A stretch of 64,000 bases of DNA, from NCBI RefSeq assembly GCF_055900595.2, contig NZ_CM148325.1, one strand, 5' to 3'. A program made the translations under genes and the position numbers. This document shows positions 4,779-63,509 of the stretch, one piece after another. The notes under the pieces were generated by a model, which was not told the origin of the DNA, ran no database searches, and saw only the letters and a list, made by a program, of their open reading frames with translations. The number at the start of each line of letters is the position of its first letter. Positions within the stretch are counted from its first letter, which is position 1.

Positions 4779-5086
4779 GTTTTTTTCTTCCTGTACCTGT
4801 CTGTGTTGTTCAGGCTCTGCGGCCTTTAGTCAGTCTATGATACGACGAATCTGTATCGGGACTCATCGATATTAGGTAACAATACGCGGGATGAATACTA
4901 AGATTTAGATCTAATGTTAATTTTATGTTTAAAGTGAGTGTCATATCACGGTGATAACGCGAAACAGCTCACAAAAATACACGCTTACGTGGTCTTTGCA
5001 ACACAAAATAGCGCCATTTGGCAAACTGAAGGGTTTATTGCTGAATGCCTGCTCCCCTCTGGCTCGAGGGGAACAGAATGCGCTGC

Positions 5087-5707
5087 TTAGAGGATTTCCA
5101 GCAGTTCGACTTCAAACACCAGGGTGCTGAACGGAGGGATGGACGCGCCTGCGCCACGCTCGCCATATGCCAGTTCCTGCGGGATAGTCAGTTCCCATTT
5201 AGAACCTACCGGCATCAGAGTCAGTGCTTCAATCCAGCCAGGGATCACGCCGTTAACCGGGAATTCAGCTGGCTCGCCGCGAGCGACGGAGCTGTCAAAC
5301 ACGGTGCCGTCGATCAGTTTTCCGGTGTAATGAACACGAACGCGGTCGGTACGTGCCGGAATTGCGCCTGCACCCTGGTTGATCACGCGGAATTGCAGGC
5401 CAGATTCGGTGCTATTCACACCTTCTTTTTTGGCGTTTTCTTCCAGGTATTTCACACCTTCAGCAGCCATCGCCTGGAAACGCTGACGACGAACGGCATC
5501 GGCGCGTTCGTGGATTTCACGCAGCGCGCGGTGCACCACATCAACCGGAACAGCCGGATGTTTGCCTTCCAGCGCATCGGCAATGCCTGCAACCAGTGCT
5601 TCTGGCAGCAGCCCTTCCAGGCCTGATTCACTCAGTTGTTGCCCTACCTGCAAACCAATGCCGTAGCTTGCTTGCGCTTCGATGGTGTCAAAAGTTGGGG
5701 TGGTCAT
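5087..5707 (-). CDS. fklB: FKBP-type peptidyl-prolyl cis-trans isomerase FklB
   Basis: Start chosen at internal ATG (5705-5707) giving 206 aa [12 protein letters not shown]...; C-terminal FKBP domain; the track ORF extends 53 codons further upstream and is rejected. Confidence 0.9.
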
Positions 5708-5924
5708 CGTATTTCCTTTCTTAGGGTATAAAGTAGCGGGCAGCATATCAGCCACACTTCTTTGGGTAAAACTTTGTCGCGGGAATGATGACAAATCCCG
5801 GGGAAAAAGAAACAATAGCAATATCCCGTATGAATATAATAAAGGCGGGTTTACCACGGACATCATAGCGTTAGCTTATTCATAGGCTATGATTGAGGAA
5901 CAAGACGCGGAGCAGGAGGAAACC

Positions 5925-6563
5925 ATGCCCGGGCGCTTTGAACTAAAACCAACCCTGGAGAAAGTCTGGCACGCGCCGGACAATTTTCGCTTCATGGACC
6001 CGCTACCGCCGATGCATCGTCGGGGGATCATTATTGCCGCTATTGTATTGGTGGTCGGATTTCTACTCCCGTCTGATGATACGCCAAACGCGCCGGTGGT
6101 GACGCGTGAAGCACAGTTAGATATTCAGTCGCAATCACAACCGCCGACAGAAGAACAGCTGCGGGCGCAATTAGTCACACCACAAAATGATCCTGATCAG
6201 GTGGCTCCGGTCGCTCCAGAACCGATACAGGAAGGCCAACCGGAAGAGCAGCCGCAAACCTCGCAAGTGCAACCTTTCCAGCCAGATAGCGGAATTGACA
6301 ATCAATGGCGCTCTTATCGTGTCGAACCCGGTAAAACAATGGCGCAGCTGTTCCGCGACCACGGACTGCCCGCTACCGATGTCTATGCAATGGCGCAGGT
6401 AGAAGGCGCAGATAAGCCACTGAGTAATTTGCAAAATGGGCAGATGGTGAAAATCCGCCAGAACGCCAGCGGCGTGGTGACGGGCTTAACCATTGATACG
6501 GGAAATAATCAACAGGTCCTGTTTACCCGCCAGCCGGATGGCAGTTTTATTCGCGCGCGGTAG
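5925..6563 (+). CDS. ytfB: Cell-division-associated OapA-domain protein YtfB
   Basis: ATG at 5925 with AGGAGGA RBS (5913-5919); 212 aa; one TM helix then Pro/Gln-rich linker; in-frame upstream ATG at 5889 also possible. Confidence 0.85.
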
Positions 6564-7194
6564 ATGAAGGGTCAACCAGAAGCCAGCTAAGGATCGTCTC
6601 TTTGATGACCTTACGCCTGGCTTCCAGTGCCTGCGGTGAAACCATACTGATGTGATAAACCAGGCCAAGCGTATGTTGGTTGATCAAATAATATCCTCCA
6701 AGAGCAGCAATATTAATATTCACCTGCAACGGGTCGATATCTGGCTTAAAAATATTGCGCCGTTTGCCTTCAGCTAATAATGACTCCATTAACTGTAAGT
6801 GTGCGTGGTTAATTTCTAAAAGGCGCTGTGATTTTGCATAATGCACCCCTTTACTCTGGTTTTCACTATGCACAATTTTTAAAAACCAGGGGTTAGCAAT
6901 GTAATAATCCCAGGTGAAATCGATAATTTTCTCAATGGCTTTTTGTGGCGGAAGACCTGAGAAATCAAGGGATTTTTCTTTTTGCCGAATATCATTCCAG
7001 GTATATTCCAGCACTTCGATAAATAAATTTTCTTTATTACCAAAGTGATGATAAACCGTCTGTTTACTGCACTCCGCGGCCTTGACGATATTATCGACTC
7101 TGGCCCCTTCGTAACCATATTCGGCAAATTCATTAACCGCACATAACAACAGCTTTTCCTTCAGGCTTTGTACGTTGCTGGTATCAAGATACAT
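6547..7194 (-). CDS. TetR/AcrR-family transcriptional regulator, divergent from the downstream operon (possibly the full-length counterpart of the K-12 ytfA fragment)
   Basis: N-terminal HTH region [48 protein letters not shown] typical of TetR family; start set at ATG 7192-7194 (215 aa); upstream in-frame start at 7254 possible; low GC. Confidence 0.8.
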
Positions 7195-7316
7195 TCCGCT
7201 TCCCCACGTCTTCTTCGTGATGACTATCTTAACCCGATTTGTTAGAAGCTCCACTAAAATGGCTAAAAACTCGCAATTTCATCGGGTTATCAAATGCTCT
7301 GTGATCATTATCGCAT

Positions 7317-7338
7317 ATCAACCAACTAGATGGTTGAT
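7317..7338. promoter_or_regulatory. Candidate TetR operator: perfect 8-6-8 palindrome ATCAACCA-actaga-TGGTTGAT between the divergent regulator and SDR genes
   Basis: Palindrome read directly from sequence, about 70 nt upstream of the SDR start codon and 120 nt upstream of the TetR gene start. Confidence 0.5.
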
Positions 7339-7405
7339 CTTTCTTGCCACACATTGCAAGCTAATCGTCACTTAAGGAAATAATATTCAAAAAGAGGGTT
7401 ATTGT

Positions 7406-8197
7406 ATGAAGTCAACACGTCCTGTTGCTGTCATCACTGGAGCCGCACGTGGTATTGGAAAGGGCTGTGCACTGGAACTTGCGCGTGGCGGATTTAATCT
7501 GCTGATTAATGATCGTCCGGATGCCGACAGCGTAGAAAAATTACATGCCACACAACAAGAATGTCTGGCGGAAGGCGTGGAAGTGATTTGCTTCCCTGCT
7601 GATGTTGGCGATCTCTCCCTTCATGAAGAGATGCTCGACGCGGCGCAAAACCAGTGGGGACGTCTGGACTGTCTACTCAACAACGCAGGCATTTCAGTGA
7701 AAAAACGCGGTGACCTCCTCGACCTCGAACCAGACAGCTTCGACCAAAACATTGCCATTAACACCCGTGCGCCGTTCTTCCTTGCTCAGGCATTCAGTAA
7801 GCGATTACTGGCACAGCCGAAACCGGAAGCAGAACTGCCGCACCGCTCGATTATTTTTGTCAGTTCCATAAACGCCATCATGCTGGCGATGAATCGCGGC
7901 GAATATACCATTGCCAAAACTGCCGTCTCCGCCGCAGCTCGCCTGTTTGCCGCTCGCCTTTGCAATGAACAAATTGGCGTTTATGAAGTGCGCCCTGGCC
8001 TAATCAAAACCGATATGACCATTCCGGCAACGGCTTATTACGACGAACTGATTGCTAAGGGGTTAGTGCCGTGGGGACGTTGGGGTTATCCGGCTGATAT
8101 TGCCTCAACGGTCCGCGCGATGGCGGAAGGCAAACTGATTTACACCTGTGGTCAGGCGGTCGCCATCGACGGCGGCTTAAGTATGCCGCGCTTCTGA
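7406..8197 (+). CDS. Short-chain dehydrogenase/reductase (SDR) family oxidoreductase
   Basis: 263 aa; TGAARGIG cofactor-binding motif, NNAG, and catalytic Ser...YxxxK (YTIAK); RBS GAGGG. Confidence 0.85.
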   Translation: MKSTRPVAVITGAARGIGKGCALELARGGFNLLINDRPDADSVEKLHATQQECLAEGVEVICFPADVGDLSLHEEMLDAAQNQWGRLDCLLNNAGISVKKRGDLLDLEPDSFDQNIAINTRAPFFLAQAFSKRLLAQPKPEAELPHRSIIFVSSINAIMLAMNRGEYTIAKTAVSAAARLFAARLCNEQIGVYEVRPGLIKTDMTIPATAYYDELIAKGLVPWGRWGYPADIASTVRAMAEGKLIYTCGQAVAIDGGLSMPRF

Positions 8198-8206
8198 GGC
8201 TGAATC

Positions 8207-9049
8207 ATGAGAGATCTGTTACAACGCCCGGATTTATTCAGTATCAATACTGCGACACTGGGCTATAAAACACCGCTACCTGCCATTATTGATGCCTGCG
8301 CCGCACGCGGTATTGGCGCGATTGCCCCCTGGCGCAGGGAGTTACAGGGTGAAGATCTCCAACAAATCGCCCGCCAGCTTGCTGCCAGTAACATGAGCGT
8401 TTCCGGTTTGTGCCGTAGCACCTATTACACCGCGCCGACGCTGACGGAACGCAAACTGGCGATTGATGATAACCGCCGGGCGCTGGACGACGCCGCTGTA
8501 CTAAACGCCGCCTGTTATATGCAGGTGGTTGGCGGTCTGCCAATGGGAACAAAAGATCTGTACGAAGCGCGGGAACAAGTGAAACAAGGGATTCGCCAGT
8601 TGCTGCCACATTCGAAAGATGTCGGCGTGCCAATTGCGCTGGAGCCGCTGCACCCGATGACAGCTGCCGATCGCTCTTGCCTGTGCACGTTACGTCAGGC
8701 GCTGGACTGGTGTGATGAACTCGATCCCGATGGGGAGTTTGGCCTCGGCGTGGCGGTAGATGTCTACCACGTTTGGTGGGATCCGGATCTCGCCAGTCAG
8801 ATCCTGCGTGCCGGAAAACGCATCCTCGCGTTTCATGTTTCCGACTGGCTGGTGCCAACCACCGATTTAGTCAATGACCGGGGAATGCCGGGAGATGGCG
8901 TAATCAATATTCCGTCTATTCGTCGCCAGGTAGAAAATGCCGGATTTAACGGTGCTGTGGAACTGGAAATTTTCTCACCGTACTGGTGGCAGCAAGATAT
9001 TAACAGCACGTTGGATATTAGCGTCGATCGCATCGCGCATTATTGCTAA
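8207..9049 (+). CDS. Sugar phosphate isomerase/epimerase-like (xylose isomerase-like TIM barrel) enzyme
   Basis: 280 aa; family assignment from overall sequence character (judged by eye, less certain than neighbours); 9-nt gap after the SDR gene. Confidence 0.6.
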   Translation: MRDLLQRPDLFSINTATLGYKTPLPAIIDACAARGIGAIAPWRRELQGEDLQQIARQLAASNMSVSGLCRSTYYTAPTLTERKLAIDDNRRALDDAAVLNAACYMQVVGGLPMGTKDLYEAREQVKQGIRQLLPHSKDVGVPIALEPLHPMTAADRSCLCTLRQALDWCDELDPDGEFGLGVAVDVYHVWWDPDLASQILRAGKRILAFHVSDWLVPTTDLVNDRGMPGDGVINIPSIRRQVENAGFNGAVELEIFSPYWWQQDINSTLDISVDRIAHYC

Positions 9050-9052
9050 GGA

Positions 9053-9835
9053 ATGATCATGAGTGACCAACCCGTTCTGTTCAGCAGAGCGGCGGCTTCC
9101 TGCCGCCTGACATTGAACCGTGAAGATAAATGTCATGCTATTAATGAAGAAATGATCGAATCTCTCGACCATTATTTAAATGAAATTGAAAACGACACCA
9201 CATTACGATTAGTCGAATTAACGGCAACCGGCGATAAATTCTTTTGTGCGGGCGGCGATATTAAATCGTGGTCGGCCTATTCGCCATTAGATATGGGCAG
9301 AAAATGGATTAAACGCGGCAATGACGTTTTTAATCGCCTGCGCAACTTACCCCAATTAACGGTTGCGAATCTCAACGGTCATACCATCGGCGGCGGTATT
9401 GAACTTGCCTTGTGCTGCGATATTCGTATTGCCCGCCCCAGTGCGAAATTCTCTAATCCGGAAGTAATGCTCGGCATGGTGCCTGGCTGGATGGGCATTG
9501 AACGCGTGCTTAATCAGGTCGGTCCGGTGGTCGGTCGCCAGATGCTGATGCTGGGTAAACGCCTGACGGCGCAGGAAGCTCAGGCGGCGAATTTAATTGA
9601 TGAAGTGGTAGAAAAAGAACAGGTGGAAAGCTGGATGGCGAATCAGTTAGCGCAGCTGGAAAAATGCGGTCCGGTGGCGCTCGCACATATCAAGCAACTG
9701 ATTCTGGCTCTAGAAAATAAACATGCTGATTACCCGCACCAGTTACTGGCTGGATTAATGTCCGCCACTCAGGATTGCCAGCAGGCGACGCGCGCATTTG
9801 CCGAAAAAAGTAGCGTGAGCTTCCAAAATCAATAA
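9053..9835 (+). CDS. Enoyl-CoA hydratase/isomerase (crotonase) family protein
   Basis: 260 aa; FCAGGDIKSW and GHTIGGGIELALCCDIRIA crotonase signature segments; 3-nt gap after the upstream gene. Confidence 0.85.
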   Translation: MIMSDQPVLFSRAAASCRLTLNREDKCHAINEEMIESLDHYLNEIENDTTLRLVELTATGDKFFCAGGDIKSWSAYSPLDMGRKWIKRGNDVFNRLRNLPQLTVANLNGHTIGGGIELALCCDIRIARPSAKFSNPEVMLGMVPGWMGIERVLNQVGPVVGRQMLMLGKRLTAQEAQAANLIDEVVEKEQVESWMANQLAQLEKCGPVALAHIKQLILALENKHADYPHQLLAGLMSATQDCQQATRAFAEKSSVSFQNQ

Positions 9836-9844
9836 GGAAATTGT

Positions 9845-11386
9845 ATGCGTAAGATAACAACCGCCGAGACACTGGCGGCGCAAATTCAGGACGGCGCAAC
9901 CATTGCCATTAGCGGTAATGGCGGCGGCATGGTGGAAGCGGACCATATTCTGGCTGCTATTGAAGCGCGTTTCCTGCAAACCGGACACCCGCGCGATCTG
10001 ACATTAATCCACTCACTGGGCATTGGCGATCGCGACTGCAAAGGCACTAACCGCTTCGCTCATGCAGAGATGCTCAAACGCATCATTGCCGGACATTTTA
10101 CCTGGTCGCCCAAGATGCAGGATCTGGTGAAAAACAATGCTATTGAAGCCTACTGCTTCCCTGGTGGCGTAATTCAGGCACTGCTGCGGGAGATCGGTGC
10201 CGGACGTCCAGGGCTTTTTACCCACGTTGGGCTGGGATCGTTTGTTGATCCGCGCAACGGCGGCGGTAAGTCGAACGCTAGCAGCACTGAGGATCTGGTA
10301 GAACTGATTGAAATCGACGGTGAAACCAAACTTCGTTATCGCCCCTTCAAAGTGGACTACGCGATTTTGCGTGGCACTTATGCCGATCCGCGTGGCAACG
10401 TCAGCCTCGAAGAAGAGGCGATTGATATGGATAGCTATTCCATGGCGCTGGCAGCACACAACAGCGGCGGCAAAGTGTTCGTACAGGTGCGCGATGTGCT
10501 GGAAGCTGGTGCCATTGAACCACGCCGGGTCAAATTACCGGGCATTCTGGTTGATGGCATCGTTGAACACCGCGAACAACCGCAAACCTATCTTGGCGGT
10601 TACGACCTGACCATCAGCGGTCAGCATCGCCGTCTAAGTTCTAACGACGCAATTGAACTGGTTAGTCATCCGGTGCGCCGCCTGATTGCCCGTCGGGCAG
10701 CACGCGAACTGGTGGCTGGCGCTTCAACCAACTTTGGCTTTGGCATTCCCGGCGGCATTCCTGGGGTTGCACTGCGCGAAGGCGTGCCTTATCAAAGTTT
10801 ATGGCTGAGCGTAGAACAGGGTGTACATAACGGCATGATGCTGGATGATGCTCTGTTCGGCTGCGCCCGCAACGCCGATGCCATTATTCCATCACTCGAT
10901 CAATTCGAATTCTACAGTGGCGGAGGGATCGATATCACCTTCCTCGGCATGGGAGAGATGGATCAGTACGGTAACGTCAACGTCTCCCATCTCAATGGCA
11001 ATCTCATTGGCCCCGGCGGATTTCTCGAAATTGCGCAAAACGCCCGTAAAGTGGTGTTCTGCGGCACGTTCGACGCCAAAGGTAGCACGATTGATGTAAC
11101 ACCAGATGGCTTGCATATCGCCCAGTCAGGTCAAATCCCTAAACTGGTTACCCAGGTGGAAAAAATCACTTTTAGCGCCGCCTACGCACAGCAAAGCGGT
11201 CAGGAAGTGTTGTATATCACTGAACGTGCAGTATTCCAGTTAACAGCAGAAGGCGTTGAATTAATTGAAATCGCACCAGGTGTGGAGATTGAGCGCGACA
11301 TTCTGCCGCATATGGCCTTCCGTCCAATTATCAATCAGCCACGCCTGATGGAAAGTAGCCTGTTTACGCCGATGGAGGATGCATGA
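9845..11386 (+). CDS. Family-I CoA-transferase (fused alpha/beta, YdiF / propionate-CoA-transferase-like)
   Basis: 513 aa; N-terminus TAETLAAQIQDGATIAISGNGGGM and size match acyl-CoA:acetate/3-ketoacid CoA-transferases; RBS AAGGA. Confidence 0.75.
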   Translation: MRKITTAETLAAQIQDGATIAISGNGGGMVEADHILAAIEARFLQTGHPRDLTLIHSLGIGDRDCKGTNRFAHAEMLKRIIAGHFTWSPKMQDLVKNNAIEAYCFPGGVIQALLREIGAGRPGLFTHVGLGSFVDPRNGGGKSNASSTEDLVELIEIDGETKLRYRPFKVDYAILRGTYADPRGNVSLEEEAIDMDSYSMALAAHNSGGKVFVQVRDVLEAGAIEPRRVKLPGILVDGIVEHREQPQTYLGGYDLTISGQHRRLSSNDAIELVSHPVRRLIARRAARELVAGASTNFGFGIPGGIPGVALREGVPYQSLWLSVEQGVHNGMMLDDALFGCARNADAIIPSLDQFEFYSGGGIDITFLGMGEMDQYGNVNVSHLNGNLIGPGGFLEIAQNARKVVFCGTFDAKGSTIDVTPDGLHIAQSGQIPKLVTQVEKITFSAAYAQQSGQEVLYITERAVFQLTAEGVELIEIAPGVEIERDILPHMAFRPIINQPRLMESSLFTPMEDA

Positions 11387-13455
11387 GTCAGCTTGATGAC
11401 ACCCTCCTTGATGCGCTGACGCACGTCACTTTCCCGAAGGGTTTTGCACAGGCAGAACCCGCATGGGTTGTCACGGTAGACGGTGTTGATTACCCACTCT
11501 GGCAAACAGATGCCCTGGTAGTCGGCAGTGGTGCAGCCGGGCTGCGTGCAGCTGTGGAACTTAAGCGCCGCCAGCAAAATGTGCTGATCGCCACCGCCGG
11601 GTTATATATGGGGACATCGGCATGTTCTGGTTCCGATAAACAGACGCTGTTTACCGCCGCTACCGCGGGCAACGGCGATAACTTCGCCAAACTGGCAGAG
11701 GCACTGGCGAGCGGCGGCGCAATGGATCACGATACCGCTTATGTTGAAGCGGTTGGTTCCCTGCACACTCTTGGCGGGTTGCAATATCTTGGTCTGGAAT
11801 TACCGGAAGATCGCTATGGCGCAATTCTTCGTTATCAAACCGACCATGACGAAGCCGGGCGAGCAACCTCGTGTGGGCCGCGGACCTCAAGGTTAATGGT
11901 GAAAGTACTGCTGGAAGAAGTACAGCGTCTCGCCATTCCAGTGTTGACCAGTGCAACAGTAATTAAACTGCTGCATCAGCGTGACGAAAACGGTGAAGAC
12001 CGCGTGGCGGGGGCAATCCTCGCGACCGGTCATCGTGCCCATAACCCATGGGGGCTGGCAATTGTGACTGCGCCCAATGTGGTACTGGCAACAGGAGGGC
12101 CTGGCGAGCTTTATCGTGACAGTGTGTACCCACACAAATGTTTCGGCTCGCTGGGGCTGGCGCTGGAAGAAGGTCTGACGTTAACGAATCTGACCGAAAG
12201 CCAGTTTGGTATAGGCACGCCGCGCAGCACCTTTCCGTGGAATTTATCCGGGACTTATGTACAGGTGATCCCATACATCTATTCGGTGGATGCCGGGGGC
12301 AACGAGTATAACTTCCTCGCAGATTACTATCGCACCACCCAGGAGCTGGCTTCAAACATCTTCCGTAAAGGCTATCAGTGGCCGTTTCACGCCACACGAG
12401 TGATGGATTTTGGCTCCAGCTTGTTAGATATGGCAGTAGCGCAAGAGCAGCAATCAGGACGTCAGGTATTTATGGATTTCAATCGCAATCCTGAACCTGT
12501 GCCGGGTGACCTGCCGTTCTCATTAGATCGACTGGACGACGACGTTCGCGCGTATCTGGAAAATAACGACGCTCTGGCACCATCGCCCATCGAACGACTG
12601 CAACGAATGAATCCGCTGTCTATCTCGCTGTATAAGATGCACGGTTACGATCTCACCACGCAGCCATTGCAGTTTGCCATGAATAATCAGCATATGAATG
12701 GCGGCATTGAAGTGGATATCTGGGGGCAAACCTCCCTGTCCGGCTGTTTCGCCGTGGGGGAAGTTGCTGGCACACACGGCGTCACTCGCCCTGGTGGTGC
12801 GGCATTGAATGCCGGGCAGGTTTTTGCTGTTCGTCTGGCACGTTTTATTGGTTGCACGCAAAAACGTAATATTGATGGAGATATAGCACAGCTGGTAGCT
12901 CCGGCACTGGCTTCTATAAGAGAGATCATTACTCAGGCGCACGATAACGGGACCGGGATGCCGTTGTCGGTTGTGAGGGAAAAAATTCAGGCACGAATGT
13001 CTGACCATGCGGGATTTATTTGTCATGCCGATAAAGTCCGACGCGCCACTCGTGATGCCCTGCTATTGAACGAATTTGTGCAACGGCATGGATTGGCAAT
13101 CAAACATGTGGGTGAAGTTGCCGAGCTGTTTATGTGGCGGCATATGGCGCTGACTTCTGCCGCGGTATTAACACAATTAACGCATTATATTGATGCTGGT
13201 GGTGGTAGCCGTGGGGCGCGTATGGTTATTGATCCACAAGGCAAATGCCTACCACAAACTCGTCGCGGCGCAAAAGAAGAATGGCGTTTTCGCTCTGAAC
13301 TCGCTGAAGACAAAAATCACAAATTAACAATTCAATATTCGCAAGGTTCTTTTATTACCGAAGTAAAGTCTTTACGTATGCAACCGTGTATTAACGGTAT
13401 TTACTTTGAAAAAAACTGGCCAGACTTTTTAAAGGGAGACATTTACACACAGTAA
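11383..13455 (+). CDS. FAD-dependent oxidoreductase of the fumarate reductase/succinate dehydrogenase flavoprotein superfamily (soluble, stand-alone)
   Basis: 690 aa; ALVVGSGAAGLRAAVEL dinucleotide-binding motif after a ~45-aa N-terminal extension; C-terminal GEVAGTHGVTRPGGAALNAGQVFA resembles the FrdA/SdhA HGANRLGxNSL segment; start overlaps the CoA-transferase stop (ATGA). Confidence 0.8.
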   Translation: MSQLDDTLLDALTHVTFPKGFAQAEPAWVVTVDGVDYPLWQTDALVVGSGAAGLRAAVELKRRQQNVLIATAGLYMGTSACSGSDKQTLFTAATAGNGDNFAKLAEALASGGAMDHDTAYVEAVGSLHTLGGLQYLGLELPEDRYGAILRYQTDHDEAGRATSCGPRTSRLMVKVLLEEVQRLAIPVLTSATVIKLLHQRDENGEDRVAGAILATGHRAHNPWGLAIVTAPNVVLATGGPGELYRDSVYPHKCFGSLGLALEEGLTLTNLTESQFGIGTPRSTFPWNLSGTYVQVIPYIYSVDAGGNEYNFLADYYRTTQELASNIFRKGYQWPFHATRVMDFGSSLLDMAVAQEQQSGRQVFMDFNRNPEPVPGDLPFSLDRLDDDVRAYLENNDALAPSPIERLQRMNPLSISLYKMHGYDLTTQPLQFAMNNQHMNGGIEVDIWGQTSLSGCFAVGEVAGTHGVTRPGGAALNAGQVFAVRLARFIGCTQKRNIDGDIAQLVAPALASIREIITQAHDNGTGMPLSVVREKIQARMSDHAGFICHADKVRRATRDALLLNEFVQRHGLAIKHVGEVAELFMWRHMALTSAAVLTQLTHYIDAGGGSRGARMVIDPQGKCLPQTRRGAKEEWRFRSELAEDKNHKLTIQYSQGSFITEVKSLRMQPCINGIYFEKNWPDFLKGDIYTQ

Positions 13456-13547
13456 TTTTCAATATTTACTCTGTACCTGATTTTTATTGCCTATTACATG
13501 GAAATACCAACAACCAGGGTTTATTAATATAATTAAAAGGTTTAAAA

Positions 13548-14825
13548 ATGAATAAAATAAAGAATTATCGATGGCATATGATTGCCCTCGTATGCTTTAT
13601 CACTGTAATCAATTATCTGGACAGAACGGCGTTAGGTATTGCGGCTCCAACGATTATGGAGACAACCGGAATAACCAAAGAACAATATTCATGGATTGTC
13701 AGTGCATTCCAGTTGGCCTATACATTGGGGCAACCGGTAATGGGCTTCTTTATTGATACCGTGGGTCTGAAGTTAAGTTTTGCGATATGTGCCGCAATCT
13801 GGGGCCTGGCGACAATGGGGCATGCCTTGACAGGAACATGGTCAGGTCTGGCATTTATGCGCGCCCTGATGGGTTTCAGCGAAGCATCGGCAATTCCTGC
13901 GGGTGTAAAAACCGCATCAACATGGTTCCCGGCAAAAGAGCGTGGCGTGGCGACAGGTGTTTTCAATATGGGCACCTCACTCGGCGCGATGCTTGCTCCA
14001 CCGTTGATTGCCTGGTGCATTATGTTTCATAGCTGGCAATTTGCGTTTATTGTCTCAGGTAGCCTTGCTTTACTCGCGGCTTTATTTTGGTTCTTTTGTT
14101 ATAAAGATCCAAAAGATGCTAAACGCCTTTCTGATGAAGAGCGCCACTATATTGAGTCTGGGCAAGAACAGCATCTTAAAACAGATAAGAAAGAAAAAAC
14201 GTCAATCAAGCATATCCTCAGCCAACGTAATTTCTGGGGGATTGGCATCGCGCGTTTTCTCGCTGACCCGGCATGGGGAACCATTAACTTCTGGGTACCG
14301 ATTTTCTTCGTCGAAACGCTGCATTTTAGCCTGAAAGAAATTGCCATGTTCGTCTGGCTGCCTTTCCTGCTGGGCGATCTCGGCTGTTTAGCCAGTGGTT
14401 TTGTCGCGAAGTTCTTCCACGATCGCGGCGTGAGTTTAATTAACTCACGAAGAATTACCTTCACTATTGCAGCCGTCATTATGATGACGATTGGTCTGGT
14501 GAGTATTGTCGAAAATCCCTACATCGCCGTATTACTGATTAGCATTGGCGCATTCTCGCATCAATGTCTTTCTACTGTTGCAGCAACTCTGGGCGGTGAC
14601 CTATTCAAAAAAGACGAAGTAGCTACCGCTGTGGGTATGGCAGGAGCCTGTGCATGGAGCGGTCAGTTGATTTTCAACCTGTTTATCGGGGCATTCGTTC
14701 ACATTATTGGCTTCGCGCCGTTCTTTATTGCCCTGGCTTTCTTTGACATTATTGGTGCTATTGCGTTGTGGACGCTTATCAAAGTTAAAGATGAAGAACC
14801 ACAAGTACAGTTAGCTACCCACTAA
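13548..14825 (+). CDS. MFS transporter, anion:cation symporter (ACS) subfamily-like (ExuT/DgoT/GudP-type)
   Basis: 425 aa, about 12 TM segments; N-terminal RWHMIALVCFITVINYLDRTALGIAAP is characteristic of ACS-family organic-anion permeases. Confidence 0.8.
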   Translation: MNKIKNYRWHMIALVCFITVINYLDRTALGIAAPTIMETTGITKEQYSWIVSAFQLAYTLGQPVMGFFIDTVGLKLSFAICAAIWGLATMGHALTGTWSGLAFMRALMGFSEASAIPAGVKTASTWFPAKERGVATGVFNMGTSLGAMLAPPLIAWCIMFHSWQFAFIVSGSLALLAALFWFFCYKDPKDAKRLSDEERHYIESGQEQHLKTDKKEKTSIKHILSQRNFWGIGIARFLADPAWGTINFWVPIFFVETLHFSLKEIAMFVWLPFLLGDLGCLASGFVAKFFHDRGVSLINSRRITFTIAAVIMMTIGLVSIVENPYIAVLLISIGAFSHQCLSTVAATLGGDLFKKDEVATAVGMAGACAWSGQLIFNLFIGAFVHIIGFAPFFIALAFFDIIGAIALWTLIKVKDEEPQVQLATH

Positions 14826-14836
14826 TTATTTTAAAT

Positions 14837-14868
14837 AAAAACGCTATAATTGAGGTTATGGCGTTTTT
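14837..14868 (+). terminator. Intrinsic terminator after the MFS transporter gene
   Basis: Hairpin aaaacgctataa/ttatggcgtttt (one mismatch) with short loop, followed by a T-run, 12 nt past the stop codon. Confidence 0.55.
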
Positions 14869-15094
14869 AAAGAAGCTTGAGTTATCGAACCTAGCTTACC
14901 AACGCGTTGTCAGTCATCTCCCCCCTCCCTGGTGCATCGTTATATCCGTGATGAGCGATTTTTGATATTAATATCTTTCACCATCCGCTATTTTCACCAC
15001 TTCAGAAAACAAACTTATTTTTATTAATATCAATTCTTTTTCTTTGAACATTCAACTGCGATATTTGTAAAAATATTAAACAGGCAACAATAAA

Positions 15095-15889
15095 ATGACA
15101 TTACCAACAACTATTTATTCATTCCCCGCATATTTACCTCGTTTTTCGTCCACCGACAAACCAGCAAAACTAAAATTTCATCAATACGCACGCGCTACAT
15201 TACTGTCAAATCGTGGAAGAGATCATAATTGCGATGGCAGACGTACTGTTGAGATCCACAAACTAGATCTCTCAGACTGGCAAGCATTCAATAAGCTAGC
15301 GACGAGGTGTAATACTTACGATGGAATAACAATGAATGGTGATAATTCTTTTGGATGGAACCATGAAGCTACATTAGATAATATTCACGCCCAGAAATAC
15401 AATAAAGCTTACGCGGGTGCGCGGTTAACCGCAGAACTGAAATATTTATTGCAAGATGTCGAATCCTTCGAACCCAACAGTAAATACACAATACACGAAG
15501 TGGTTTTGGGACCTGGTTATGGTACTCCAGACTATACCGGCCAAACGATAGGATACGTTGTAACCCTTCCTGCCCAAATGCCTAATTGCTGGTCATCTGA
15601 ACTACCAACAATCGATCTTTATATCGACCAACTTCGCACTGTTACAGGCGTTTCTAATGCCCTCGGATTCATCATTGCTGCATTGCTAAACGCGTATTCT
15701 GATTTACCCCATGATTTGAAAATTGGTCTACGTTCCTTATCAAATTCAGCCGCAATCTACTCGGGTTTAGGTTTCGAGCGAGTGCCGCAGGACCGAGACA
15801 TAAGGAGTGATCGTATGCATCTAACGCCAGCAAACCATCCTGACTTATGGACACAAGAGAATGGTGAATGGATCTACTTGCGAAATTAA
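15095..15889 (+). CDS. yjfZ: Uncharacterised protein YjfZ
   Basis: 264-aa ORF, AT-rich, preceded by an AT-rich 270-bp intergenic region; size and position next to rplI match K-12 yjfZ. Confidence 0.75.
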   Translation: MTLPTTIYSFPAYLPRFSSTDKPAKLKFHQYARATLLSNRGRDHNCDGRRTVEIHKLDLSDWQAFNKLATRCNTYDGITMNGDNSFGWNHEATLDNIHAQKYNKAYAGARLTAELKYLLQDVESFEPNSKYTIHEVVLGPGYGTPDYTGQTIGYVVTLPAQMPNCWSSELPTIDLYIDQLRTVTGVSNALGFIIAALLNAYSDLPHDLKIGLRSLSNSAAIYSGLGFERVPQDRDIRSDRMHLTPANHPDLWTQENGEWIYLRN

Positions 15890-15911
15890 TGCCTGACGAA
15901 AAATAGAAAGC

Positions 15912-15938
15912 AAAACGCCGACCAATGGTCGGCGTTTT
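15912..15938. terminator. Bidirectional intrinsic terminator between convergent yjfZ and rplI (aaaacgccgacc-aatg-gtcggcgtttt)
   Basis: Perfect 12-bp stem whose A/T runs give a U-tract in both orientations. Confidence 0.75.
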
Positions 15939-15959
15939 TACGTCTCGTTGAATAACGAA

Positions 15960-16421
<462 letters not shown>

Positions 16422-16450
16422 TCAAAGTCGTATTAATGGACCGTGACCGA

Positions 16451-16997
<547 letters not shown>

Positions 16998-17003
16998 CAG
17001 AAA

Positions 17004-61700: not shown

Positions 61701-63509
61701 GTGCAAACCTTTCAAGCCGATCTTGCCATTGTAGGCGCCGGTGGCGCGGGATTACGTGCTGCAATTGCTGCCGCGCAGGCAAATCCAAATGCAAAAATCG
61801 CACTAATCTCAAAAGTATACCCTATGCGTAGCCATACCGTTGCTGCAGAAGGGGGCTCCGCCGCTGTCGCGCAGGATCATGACAGCTTCGAATATCACTT
61901 TCACGATACAGTAGCGGGTGGCGACTGGTTGTGTGAGCAGGATGTCGTGGATTATTTCGTCCACCACTGCCCAACCGAAATGACCCAACTGGAACTGTGG
62001 GGATGCCCATGGAGCCGTCGCCCGGATGGTAGCGTCAACGTACGTCGCTTCGGCGGCATGAAAATCGAGCGTACCTGGTTCGCCGCCGATAAGACCGGCT
62101 TCCATATGCTGCACACGCTGTTCCAGACCTCTCTGCAATTCCCGCAGATCCAGCGTTTTGACGAGCACTTCGTACTGGATATTCTGGTTGATGATGGTCA
62201 TGTTCGCGGCCTGGTGGCAATGAACATGATGGAAGGCACGCTGGTGCAGATCCGCGCTAACGCGGTCGTTATGGCTACCGGCGGTGCGGGTCGCGTTTAT
62301 CGTTACAACACCAACGGCGGTATCGTTACCGGTGACGGTATGGGTATGGCGCTAAGCCACGGCGTTCCGCTGCGTGACATGGAATTCGTTCAGTATCACC
62401 CAACCGGTCTGCCAGGTTCCGGTATCTTGATGACCGAAGGCTGCCGCGGTGAAGGCGGTATTCTGGTCAACAAAAATGGCTACCGTTATCTGCAAGATTA
62501 CGGCATGGGCCCGGAAACTCCGCTGGGCGAGCCGAAAAACAAATATATGGAACTGGGTCCACGCGACAAAGTTTCTCAGGCCTTCTGGCACGAATGGCGT
62601 AAAGGCAACACCATCTCCACGCCGCGTGGCGATGTGGTTTATCTCGACCTGCGTCACCTCGGCGAGAAAAAACTGCATGAACGTCTGCCGTTCATCTGCG
62701 AACTGGCGAAAGCGTACGTTGGCGTCGATCCGGTTAAAGAACCGATTCCAGTACGTCCGACCGCACACTACACCATGGGCGGTATCGAAACCGATCAGAA
62801 CTGTGAAACCCGCATTAAAGGTCTGTTCGCCGTGGGTGAATGTTCCTCTGTTGGTCTGCACGGTGCAAACCGTCTGGGCTCCAACTCGCTGGCGGAACTG
62901 GTGGTCTTCGGTCGTCTGGCCGGTGAACAAGCGACAGAACGTGCAGCAACTGCCGGTAATGGCAACGAAGCGGCAATTGAAGCGCAGGCTGCTGGCGTTG
63001 AACAACGTCTGAAAGATCTGGTTAACCAGGATGGCGGCGAAAACTGGGCGAAGATCCGCGACGAAATGGGCCTGGCAATGGAAGAAGGTTGCGGTATCTA
63101 CCGTACGCCGGAACTGATGCAGAAAACCATCGACAAGCTGGCTGAGCTGCAGGAACGCTTCAAGCGCGTGCGCATCACCGACACCTCCAGCGTGTTCAAC
63201 ACCGACCTGCTCTACACCATTGAACTGGGTCACGGTCTGAACGTTGCTGAATGTATGGCGCACTCCGCAATGGCACGTAAAGAGTCCCGCGGCGCGCACC
63301 AGCGTCTGGACGAAGGTTGCACCGAGCGTGACGACGTCAACTTCCTCAAACACACCCTCGCCTTCCGCGATGCTGATGGCACTACTCGCCTGGAGTACAG
63401 CGACGTGAAGATTACTACGCTGCCGCCAGCTAAACGCGTTTACGGTGGCGAAGCGGATGCAGCCGATAAGGCGGAAGCAGCCAATAAGAAGGAGAAGGCG
63501 AATGGCTGA
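61701..63509 (+). CDS. frdA: Fumarate reductase flavoprotein subunit
   Basis: 602-aa ORF from GTG 61701; [22 protein letters not shown] motif; HTVAAEGG covalent-FAD His region. Confidence 0.97.

Follow-up and report, generated by a model that had tools for sequence, protein, structure and literature searches.

We analyzed a 64,000-nucleotide stretch of Escherichia coli DNA (NCBI RefSeq assembly GCF_055900595.2, contig NZ_CM148325.1; hereafter the window), in which the interval between ytfB and yjfZ carries a divergently transcribed TetR-family regulator gene and a tight, co-directional operon of six genes. All seven open reading frames (ORFs) that an initial annotation had placed in positions 6547-14825 are present in the ORF list. 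We confirmed that this locus is real, ancestral, common, and under selection, and that it brings known protein families together in an undescribed combination around an uncharacterized flavoprotein family. The features of the locus are as follows.

6547..7194, minus strand: TetR/AcrR-family regulator, 215 aa, divergent from the operon (ORF; the longest ORF is 6547-7254)
7300..7315, plus strand: CRP-like site TGTGATCATTATCGCA in the divergent promoter region (putative, from its consensus match)
7317..7338, plus strand: 22-bp palindrome ATCAACCAACT/AGATGGTTGAT, directly after the CRP-like site; candidate TetR operator
7406..8197, plus strand: short-chain dehydrogenase/reductase (SDR), 263 aa, annotated as "3-ketoacyl-ACP reductase" (ORF, NCBIfam, motifs)
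8207..9049, plus strand: xylose-isomerase-like TIM-barrel protein, 280 aa, PF01261, isomerase/epimerase/eliminase type (PDB sequence matches, Pfam on orthologs)
9059..9835, plus strand: crotonase-family enoyl-coenzyme A (CoA) hydratase, 258 aa, alternative start at 9053 (NCBIfam, motifs)
9845..11386, plus strand: fused family I CoA-transferase, 513 aa, YdiF paralog (PDB match, alignment to YdiF)
11383..13455, plus strand: stand-alone FrdA/SdhA/NadB-superfamily flavoprotein, 690 aa (Pfam, AlphaFold model)
13548..14825, plus strand: ACS-family major facilitator superfamily (MFS) anion permease, 425 aa (NCBIfam TIGR00893, IMG name)
5889-6563 and 15095-15889: ytfB and yjfZ, the flanks of the locus; rplI follows yjfZ
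6950..14926, no strand: interval missing from K-12, a derived deletion (genome alignment)

The intergenic gaps of 9, 3, 9, -4, and 92 nt first given for the operon are exact for the starts chosen then, but the RefSeq annotation of strain Nissle 1917 and the Klebsiella and Salmonella orthologs move the crotonase start to 9059 (gap, 9 nt) and the TetR start to 7194. The flavoprotein start overlaps the CoA-transferase stop by 4 nt (ATGA, 11383-11386). A few E. coli genomes appear to encode these two proteins as one 1078-aa fusion (P0003; PF01144 plus PF00890), which presumably arose by stop loss within this overlap. ytfB and the TetR gene are convergent and overlap by 17 nt at their 3' ends (6547-6563), an overlap annotated likewise in Nissle, K-12, Klebsiella, and Salmonella. 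GC content, initially described as backbone-like, is so for the enzyme genes (0.50 to 0.55) but not for the TetR region (0.425), the MFS region (0.44 to 0.46), or the yjfZ region (about 0.40). Among the ORFs of the locus we found no thiolase, acyl carrier protein (ACP), ketoacyl-ACP synthase (KAS), or acyltransferase gene; PADLOC gave no anti-phage defense match for any of the seven proteins, and no Rfam family was found in window positions 5000-17000. Promoter and terminator scans yielded site numbers that were fewer than, or no more than, those in shuffled sequence.

As first noted, the locus is absent from K-12, which aligns only to window positions 5001-6949 and 14927-17000. Between its TetR remnant (ytfA) and yjfZ, K-12 retains a 66-bp scar (K-12 locus L003, 3451-3553) that is 88% identical to window positions 7524-7589 in the SDR gene. 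Because K-12 keeps this SDR fragment, its state is a derived deletion, and the ytfA pseudogene is the 3' remnant of the TetR gene; because the fragment lies between ytfA and yjfZ, that state must have arisen through two or more deletions. In strains without the operon, IS609 (tnpA plus InsQ/TnpB) commonly splits the TetR remnant into two pseudogene pieces (CV261, L089 1699-3346; O157-type and O111 strains); this insertion is a later event. A search for the gene set in other taxa found it in Klebsiella oxytoca and some Salmonella enterica, where the identical seven genes lie between ytfB and rplI, and also in Escherichia albertii and Escherichia marmotae. The site shared across genera argues for an ancestral enterobacterial locus; we rejected a recent mobile island because all three genera carry the locus at one site and mobility genes are lacking. 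The proposal that an ancestral locus was lost from K-12 is therefore strongly supported by same-site synteny in K. oxytoca and Salmonella, by the 66-bp SDR scar, and by the dN/dS values described below.

The locus is not rare. Of 5426 complete E. coli genomes, 3114 (57%) have the five enzyme genes over 80% or more of their length, 1654 match the MFS-type 9.5-kb query to the same extent, and about 1446 carry a tripartite ATP-independent periplasmic (TRAP) transporter in place of the MFS gene and yjfZ. Carriers include the probiotic Nissle 1917 and the uropathogen CFT073. All seven genes are intact and under strong purifying selection: dN/dS between the window and Nissle is 0 to 0.08 for every gene, values against Klebsiella are 0.025 to 0.04 where dS is measurable, and the TetR gene itself gives 0.03 to 0.04. 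That the locus might be a decaying or silent accessory remnant, or else a FabG-like lipid-biosynthesis module, is thus highly improbable. Deletion in K-12, O157, and many more strains would fit a remnant, and the "3-ketoacyl-ACP reductase" annotation would fit a lipid module; however, the ORFs are all intact, dN/dS stays at 0 to 0.08 even where the alleles differ at a dS of 0.18 to 0.37, a single site is occupied across three genera, and a regulatory palindrome is conserved. A transporter and a repressor are present, whereas ACP, KAS, and acyltransferase genes are absent. The selection data contradict, and so exclude, a silent remnant.

From tetR to the flavoprotein gene (6547-13455), the window is unusually diverged from the common E. 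coli allele found in Nissle (dS 0.18 to 0.37), yet the SDR protein is 100% identical to Nissle's although its gene has a dS of 0.27. The MFS gene (13548-14825) is near-identical (dS 0.025), and rplI is about 99.5% identical. The diverged tetR-to-flavoprotein segment next to a near-identical MFS gene marks the locus as a recombinational mosaic whose protein sequences have nonetheless been preserved, and suggests that recombination or introgression long ago left a breakpoint near 13.5 kb. The tetR-to-flavoprotein allele of the window is itself rare: among 3152 matching genomes, 20 are 95 to 99% identical to it and none is above that.

The divergent promoter region contains two candidate regulatory sites. 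The CRP-like sequence is one of two matches with at most one mismatch in the 64-kb window; because 1.9 such matches are expected by chance per window, its position alone is no proof of function. The GTGA-N6-TCACA arrangement is kept in Klebsiella and Salmonella, in which the second half-site is the consensus TCACA, and the site fits catabolite control. The adjoining palindrome has 11-nt arms that are 91% complementary, with no spacer. A block of ~24 bases around it is invariant among the window, Nissle, K. oxytoca, and Salmonella, compared with a mean column identity of 78% for the intergenic region, and we infer that it is the TetR operator.

Family assignments that had been made by eye were all borne out by NCBIfam and Pfam (PF00440 plus PF17938, PF00106, PF01261, PF00378, PF01144, PF00890, and PF07690), and no domain search contradicted them. 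The Pfam set comprises precomputed matches on the K. oxytoca and Salmonella orthologs, except that the window flavoprotein was scanned itself. For the regulator, NCBIfam TetR-family models match across the N-terminal helix-turn-helix, and PF00440 plus PF17938 match the Klebsiella (216 aa) and Salmonella (215 aa) orthologs. The SDR scores 420.6 bits over its full length against NCBIfam PRK12745 (cutoff, 250), matches PDB entries 4da9 and 4one (E-55 to E-57), and has the complete classical motifs: TGAARGIG at 11, NNAG at 92, and Y167-x3-K171 (YTIAK at 167). We read its "ACP reductase" name as an annotation label. The TIM-barrel protein matches PDB entries 3qc0 and 3ju2 (SMc04130, for which no function is given; E-86) and 7vpf (E-61). 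Its PDB matches to IolI and ketose 3-epimerases are weak, as are its NCBIfam matches to IolO, fructoselysine 3-epimerase, and hydroxypyruvate isomerase; its metal ligands were noted by eye in the sequence only.

The crotonase matches NCBIfam enoyl-CoA hydratase models (E-45 to E-29, all below curated cutoffs; 153 bits for the short-chain model). It has GGGIE and NPE motifs, which by comparison with rat enoyl-CoA hydratase we take to be the site of the two catalytic glutamates. The CoA-transferase matches PDB entry 2ahu (YdiF) over residues 6-508 (E-114) and the NCBIfam FadX and 3-oxoacid/acetate CoA-transferase models, and its fused alpha and beta CoA_trans domains assign it, by sequence, to the family I type. 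YdiF is its only E. coli paralog; the two are 39% identical, and the transferase has LSVEQG (E324) opposite LTVETG in K-12 YdiF. We presume that Glu333 is the catalytic residue of YdiF and that E324 is its counterpart.

The sole Pfam match of the flavoprotein is FAD_binding_2 (PF00890; residues 43-475; E = 2e-25). NCBIfam matches to TfrA, NadB, and SdhA are all subthreshold, and a sequence search of PDB returned only NadB and FrdA, at E values of about 1e-9. Foldseek comparison of its AlphaFold model (pLDDT, 92) gave FrdA, SdhA, NadB, and AprA as top folds (TM about 0.65; probability, 1.0; 15 to 18% identity). Its long C-terminal region is FrdA/SdhA-like rather than of the flavocytochrome c3 type. 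No signal peptide, FMN_bind domain, cytochrome, or FrdB-like partner was detected for the flavoprotein, and the locus has no FrdB/SdhB iron-sulfur or membrane-anchor subunit gene in E. coli, Klebsiella, or Salmonella.

We compared active sites by hhalign, using an alignment of 30 family members and the FrdA encoded in the same window (602 aa; 61701-63509, ~48 kb downstream of the locus). In FrdA, H44 binds FAD covalently, H232 serves the distal carboxylate, R287 is the proton-shuttle arginine, and H355 and R390 serve the proximal carboxylate. In the flavoprotein family, H44 is replaced by a nearly invariant glycine (G77) and H232 by an invariant glycine (G276), and R287 falls in a gap between invariant S345 and S346; H355 and R390 are kept as H437 and R469. 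Of the four dicarboxylate-site residues, the flavoprotein thus keeps two, and it has no counterpart of the covalent-FAD histidine. Because counterparts of H232, R287, and H44 are missing, it is not an Frd, Sdh, or NadB protein: identity as fumarate reductase, succinate dehydrogenase, or L-aspartate oxidase is ruled out by these active-site residues. Its FAD is predicted to be noncovalent, and the H437/R469 pair that it still has may polarize a carboxylate (or carbonyl) beside the reacting bond.

The flavoprotein family comprises at least 419 clusters (50% identity; E ≤ 1e-30), and species-representative genomes hold at least 594 of its loci, ranging over Enterobacterales, Rhizobium, Rhodobacteraceae, Planctomycetes, Lentisphaerae, Verrucomicrobia, and Clostridia; gut anaerobes such as Enterocloster bolteae and Succinatimonas are also represented. 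A Salmonella serovar has a further flavoprotein at 58% identity (AFDB A0A974KCP1). No named relative appeared among the 120 closest proteins, all of which bear generic names, or among the top 50 AFDB50 matches. We scored neighbors within 8 kb of the flavoprotein gene at 80 loci (individual loci are given below by L numbers). An SDR of the same family was found at 36 loci, a 2-keto-3-deoxygluconate (KDG)-kinase-like or 2-keto-3-deoxy-6-phosphogluconate (KDPG)-aldolase-like gene at 28, an Old Yellow Enzyme (OYE) or OYE-GltD gene at 15, and the same TIM barrel at 13.

Several arrangements recur. In Escherichia, Klebsiella, and Salmonella the order is SDR, TIM barrel, crotonase, CoA-transferase, flavoprotein, and MFS or TRAP transporter. 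Brenneria has TetR, SDR (74% identical), TIM barrel (71%), flavoprotein (58%), and a permease that scores 369 bits against the PcaK-like aromatic-acid/H+ symporter family, and no CoA enzymes. Pseudescherichia, Phytobacter, and Mangrovibacter have TetR, SDR, an IolG-like Gfo/Idh/MocA protein, TIM barrel, MFS permease, and flavoprotein, again with no CoA enzymes; here too the MFS permease scores best in the PcaK-like aromatic-acid family. This second, paralogous enterobacterial type (L011, L012, L013, and L020; about 5660-12050) occurs also in "Escherichia sp. ESNIH1." The SDR, TIM barrel, and flavoprotein are likewise found free of any CoA enzyme in PVC-group bacteria. In alphaproteobacteria the flavoprotein is 52 to 56% identical to the window protein, and the order runs sugar ABC transporter, two GMC oxidoreductases, Dabb, LacI, LGDH-like Gfo/Idh/MocA protein (304 bits, full length), flavoprotein, and KdgK-like kinase, the last directly following the flavoprotein gene in many loci. 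Two Rhodobacter loci (L041 and L047) have, in this order, an LGDH-like Gfo, flavoprotein, KdgK, CoA-transferase, crotonase, aldehyde dehydrogenase, and sugar ABC transporter; L024, L036, and L042 have a crotonase gene at the upstream edge of the fetched flank.

More distant loci mix these elements further. Planctomycetes have OYE-GltD, SDR, Eda-like aldolase, BNR-repeat protein, flavoprotein, and KDG-kinase-like genes (the BNR-type repeats were judged by eye; NCBIfam has no match for that protein), and one metagenome-assembled genome (MAG) encodes an OYE::flavoprotein fusion with TIM-barrel and SDR genes on either side (P0147). A Clostridia MAG of roe-deer gut origin has the series flavoprotein, CoA-transferase, crotonase, cupin, SDR, CoA-transferase, and LacI after genes for a GH28 polygalacturonase and a UxuB/UxaB-like reductase. 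At L014 and L067 the flavoprotein gene lies beside CoA-transferase, crotonase, MaoC, and acyl-CoA dehydrogenase genes; electron transfer flavoprotein (ETF) subunits at L014 and a zinc alcohol dehydrogenase at L067 were seen by eye, and NCBIfam identifies IlvD-type and DapA-type sugar-acid enzymes at L067. Flavoprotein, CoA-transferase, and crotonase genes thus occur together in unrelated phyla (L014, L041, L047, L067, and L086).

Part of this neighborhood evidence bears on the main rival reading, which has a hydroaromatic or alicyclic acid as the substrate, i.e., quinate, shikimate, 3-dehydroshikimate, or a related polyhydroxy-cyclohexane carboxylate of plant origin in the gut. The SDR would oxidize a ring hydroxyl, the TIM-barrel enzyme would dehydrate the product, and reduction of the ring enoate or enone would fall to the flavoprotein; through CoA-transferase and crotonase, dehydroxylation would go on at the level of the CoA ester, toward cyclohexanecarboxylate-type products. 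PF01261, the family of the TIM-barrel protein, includes 3-dehydroshikimate dehydratases, and ETF subunits and zinc alcohol dehydrogenases such as those seen at L014 and L067 are typical of cyclohexanecarboxylate pathways; these are the two loci with the CoA-transferase, crotonase, MaoC, and acyl-CoA dehydrogenase neighbors. The Brenneria SDR-TIM-flavoprotein cluster ends in a PcaK-like symporter, and the Pseudescherichia-type permease scores best against the same family. In E. coli, the sole transferase paralog, ydiF, sits just after ydiN-ydiB-aroD and before ydiO. Gut bacteria reduce the shikimate enoate by flavin reductases, one of which is induced by shikimate, and shikimate is present in feces; a later preprint counts a "shikimate reductase" among characterized flavin reductases. 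Nevertheless, we consider a hydroaromatic substrate unlikely. The flavoprotein relatives at 52 to 56% identity sit by sugar ABC transporters, LGDH-like dehydrogenases, KdgK, and Eda rather than by aromatic genes; the E. coli transporters are hexuronate-type; and a PDB sequence search detected no similarity of the TIM-barrel protein to dehydroshikimate dehydratases. Finally, we know of no report of quinate use by E. coli.

The enzyme set could also be read as oxidative, beta-oxidation-like breakdown of a small acid (hydroxy, keto, or deoxy), for example 2-deoxyribonate. Here the acid would be activated by the transferase, the flavoprotein would replace acyl-CoA dehydrogenase as the alpha,beta-dehydrogenase, hydration would fall to the crotonase, and the SDR would yield the 3-ketoacyl-CoA for cleavage by a housekeeping thiolase. 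Four enzyme types match such a cycle: the SDR scores 420 bits against a "3-ketoacyl reductase" model, and the transferase belongs to the 3-oxoacid/acetate family. In complex II flavoproteins, however, it is covalent FAD that permits oxidation of a saturated C-C bond, and the flavoprotein here lacks the covalent-FAD histidine; its OYE fusions and neighbors indicate reduction instead. An acyl-CoA route for deoxyribonate, a compound found in human urine, does exist in Klebsiella michiganensis, encoded by genes for a CoA synthetase, beta-hydroxyacyl-CoA dehydrogenase, thiolase, CoA-transferase, glycerate kinase, and lactonase (Price et al. 2019, PMC6365646), but these come from other families. We rejected identity of the locus with that pathway: CoA synthetase, hydroxyacyl-CoA dehydrogenase, thiolase, and glycerate kinase are all absent from 6547-14825. 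Because the locus encodes no thiolase, because the TIM-barrel enzyme would be left without a role, and because the SDR-TIM-flavoprotein core occurs free of CoA enzymes in Brenneria and PVC-group bacteria, oxidative breakdown of this kind seems quite unlikely.

The transporters point elsewhere. The MFS permease scores 315 bits against TIGR00893 (D-galactonate transporter subfamily) and is named "ACS family hexuronate transporter-like" in IMG. It has no meaningful similarity to YdiN, and we dropped the idea that the two are relatives. In the TRAP variant, genes for a small permease, a large permease, and a binding protein replace the MFS gene and yjfZ; homology of the TRAP form to the window stops at 13223, in the last ~230 nt of the flavoprotein gene, whose alleles encode 690 or 693 aa. 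In Nissle the MFS gene is followed by a hipA/HTH pair where the window has yjfZ. The 3' end is thus a replacement hot spot with three E. coli states (window 13223-15906; L001 11370-13580; L002 12226-15390). Between Klebsiella and E. coli, the MFS proteins are 50% identical, compared with 79 to 91% for the enzymes. yjfZ (DUF2686, 264 aa, 15095-15889), which has the lowest GC content of the region and no NCBIfam match, is accessory because it is missing from Nissle-type and TRAP-type loci. The PDB entries closest to the TRAP binding protein, WP_000695886 in the variant locus, are 4ovr, 4x8r, 4n8y, 4n15, 4n91, and 4mhf (E-60 to E-72). Two papers report the ligands of such binders as glucuronate (4x8r), galacturonate (4n8y), D-glucuronate (4n91), and glucuronate and galacturonate (4mhf), and 4n15 served as template for the glucuronate-binding STM3169. 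These relatives point to a ring-shaped polyhydroxy carboxylate as the probable ligand. The ACS-type MFS permease and the DctP-type TRAP system are two interchangeable anion importers.

We therefore favor, at a probability of roughly 60%, the reading that the operon is functional, is controlled by its repressor, and serves to break down an organic anion that the cell imports. This anion would most probably be an acid sugar resembling a hexuronate, handled partly as CoA thioesters. The suggestion that the substrate is an organic acid or acid sugar fits both the ACS hexuronate-type MFS permease and the uronate-related TRAP binder; the function itself we infer. A link to sugar acids is drawn from the KDG-kinase and KDPG-aldolase neighbors, the gene order at L041 and L047, and the Clostridia MAG with its GH28 polygalacturonase. 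TetR would occupy the palindrome until the substrate or its CoA ester binds the repressor, with CRP adding catabolite control. After import by the MFS or TRAP system, the SDR would oxidize a hydroxyl to a ketone, and the metal-dependent TIM-barrel enzyme would isomerize, epimerize, or beta-eliminate via the new carbonyl. The YdiF-type transferase would place CoA on the carboxylate, with acetyl-CoA or the pathway's own product as donor; the crotonase would add or remove water across the alpha,beta position; and the FrdA-like flavoprotein would saturate (or form) the alpha,beta C=C bond, after which CoA would be handed on in the style of the carnitine (cai) cycle. By analogy, then, the SDR and TIM barrel would form an oxidize-then-isomerize/eliminate pair, and the transferase, crotonase, and flavoprotein a cai-like module. 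The product, probably a 2-keto-3-deoxy-hexonate-like acid or a short acyl-CoA, would enter central metabolism via enzymes encoded elsewhere, such as KdgK/Eda or a thiolase. We also weighed explicit schemes (4-O-substituted uronates, 1,5-anhydro-uronates, and 3-keto elimination); the data do not constrain them, and we claim none.

Several points weigh against an acid-sugar operon of this form. The E. coli operon contains no OYE partner, kinase, aldolase, or thiolase gene, and our searches found no member of known function in the flavoprotein, SDR, or TIM-barrel subfamilies. The TRAP binding protein is fairly distant from the uronate binders, too distant for transfer of ligand specificity. The Brenneria core, which occurs without CoA enzymes, implies that SDR, TIM barrel, and flavoprotein act on the free acid, and judging from its permease the substrate of this three-enzyme core may be hydroaromatic instead of a sugar acid. 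The flavoprotein could work in either direction, saturating or forming the C=C bond, although reduction is favored because FAD is predicted to be noncovalent, because OYE partners and fusions occur elsewhere, and because there are enoate-reducing precedents, including that for shikimate. It is conceivable, if doubtful, that the chemistry is altogether new: a polyhydroxylated ring acid (pyranuronate-like, or quinate/shikimate) might be activated as its CoA thioester, dehydrated, and then reduced, with the flavoprotein as a cytoplasmic, FrdA-like ene-reductase of a new class.

The existence of the locus is thus confirmed, and its initial interpretation is supported in every part accessible in silico. 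No function has been assigned to the operon even though E. coli is annotated better than any other organism; because K-12 deleted the locus, the operon has been invisible to K-12-based genetics. Assigning the substrate would add a nutrient or electron-sink niche that separates E. coli lineages in gut and urinary tract, might reveal CoA-dependent handling of acid sugars or hydroaromatic acids, and would annotate thousands of genes across phyla; the flavoprotein family reaches rhizobia, marine Rhodobacteraceae, and polysaccharide-degrading Planctomycetes and Verrucomicrobia. Were the substrate hydroaromatic, the operon would supply the missing gut-bacterial genes for reductive dehydroxylation of quinate and shikimate to cyclohexanecarboxylate, a source of host hippurate, and most E. 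coli would carry them, Nissle 1917 and CFT073 among them. The system is tractable: natural plus and minus strains exist, K-12 offers a clean recipient, the TRAP binding protein is soluble, and the TetR/operator pair could be made into a biosensor.

The locus matches no named pathway, as originally stated. Databases (NCBI, UniRef, IMG, and AFDB) offer only generic names, e.g., "FAD-binding protein," "putative oxidoreductase," and "acyl CoA:acetate/3-ketoacid CoA transferase." Literature searches on the gene names, product-name combinations, and uronyl- or shikimyl-CoA found nothing on the locus; those on ytfA and yjfZ returned just lists and a TetR census, and those on SMc04130, its neighbors, and 7VPF nothing relevant. 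The nearest CoA route for an acid sugar, that for deoxyribonate in K. michiganensis, is likewise enterobacterial, proceeds via CoA thioesters, and uses MFS importers of similar broad type, but its cluster has no FrdA-like flavoprotein, crotonase, or TIM barrel (PMC6365646). The classical hexuronate genes (Uxa/Uxu/Kdu) resemble the locus in transporter type only; uronate isomerase, altronate/mannonate oxidoreductase, and dehydratase genes are absent from it. The 3-keto-sugar pathways (levoglucosan LgdA/LgdB, inositol IolG/IolE/IolI, and glycoside 3-dehydrogenase) likewise couple a ketone-making dehydrogenase to a metal-dependent TIM barrel, and in related loci the flavoprotein gene lies by an LGDH-like or IolG-like Gfo gene with the same TIM and SDR families. 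Unlike the locus, however, these pathways act on neutral sugars or cyclitols and include neither flavoprotein nor CoA enzymes.

Reductases of enoates (fumarate, urocanate, acrylate, cinnamate, and shikimate) share the FAD_binding_2 fold and the retained His/Arg pair with the flavoprotein, and the NADH:acrylate and cinnamate reductases, like relatives of the flavoprotein, are fused to or lie beside OYE-type modules. Identity to solved members is nevertheless only 15 to 18%, and the counterparts of H232 and R287 are absent from the flavoprotein. The K-12 ydi cluster, whose role has to our knowledge not been resolved, runs ydiN-ydiB (quinate/shikimate dehydrogenase)-aroD-ydiF-ydiO (flavoprotein), a parallel order of MFS permease, NAD-dependent dehydrogenase, dehydratase, CoA-transferase, and flavoprotein in which only the transferases, at 39% identity, are related. 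Its dehydrogenase is AroE-type rather than an SDR, its dehydratase is a type I dehydroquinase rather than the TIM-barrel family found here, and its flavoprotein is an acyl-CoA dehydrogenase that works with ETF rather than an FrdA-like protein. The closest functional analogy is the cai system. There, an importer admits the substrate, CoA is attached by transfer, the crotonase-family dehydratase CaiD acts, the flavoprotein CaiA reduces the enoyl-CoA, and CoA is recycled to the next substrate. The locus likewise has an importer, a transferase instead of a ligase, a crotonase, and a flavoprotein. Thus, the statement that cai differs holds for the protein families but not for the logic. CaiB is a family III transferase, whereas that of the locus is family I and YdiF-type; CaiA has the acyl-CoA dehydrogenase fold, whereas the flavoprotein has the FrdA/NadB fold; and import is by a BCCT antiporter in cai but by an ACS MFS permease or TRAP system here. 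In addition, cai has no counterpart of the SDR or the TIM-barrel enzyme. With only the crotonase family in common, the locus does not belong to the cai systems, but by analogy it would follow the same logic.

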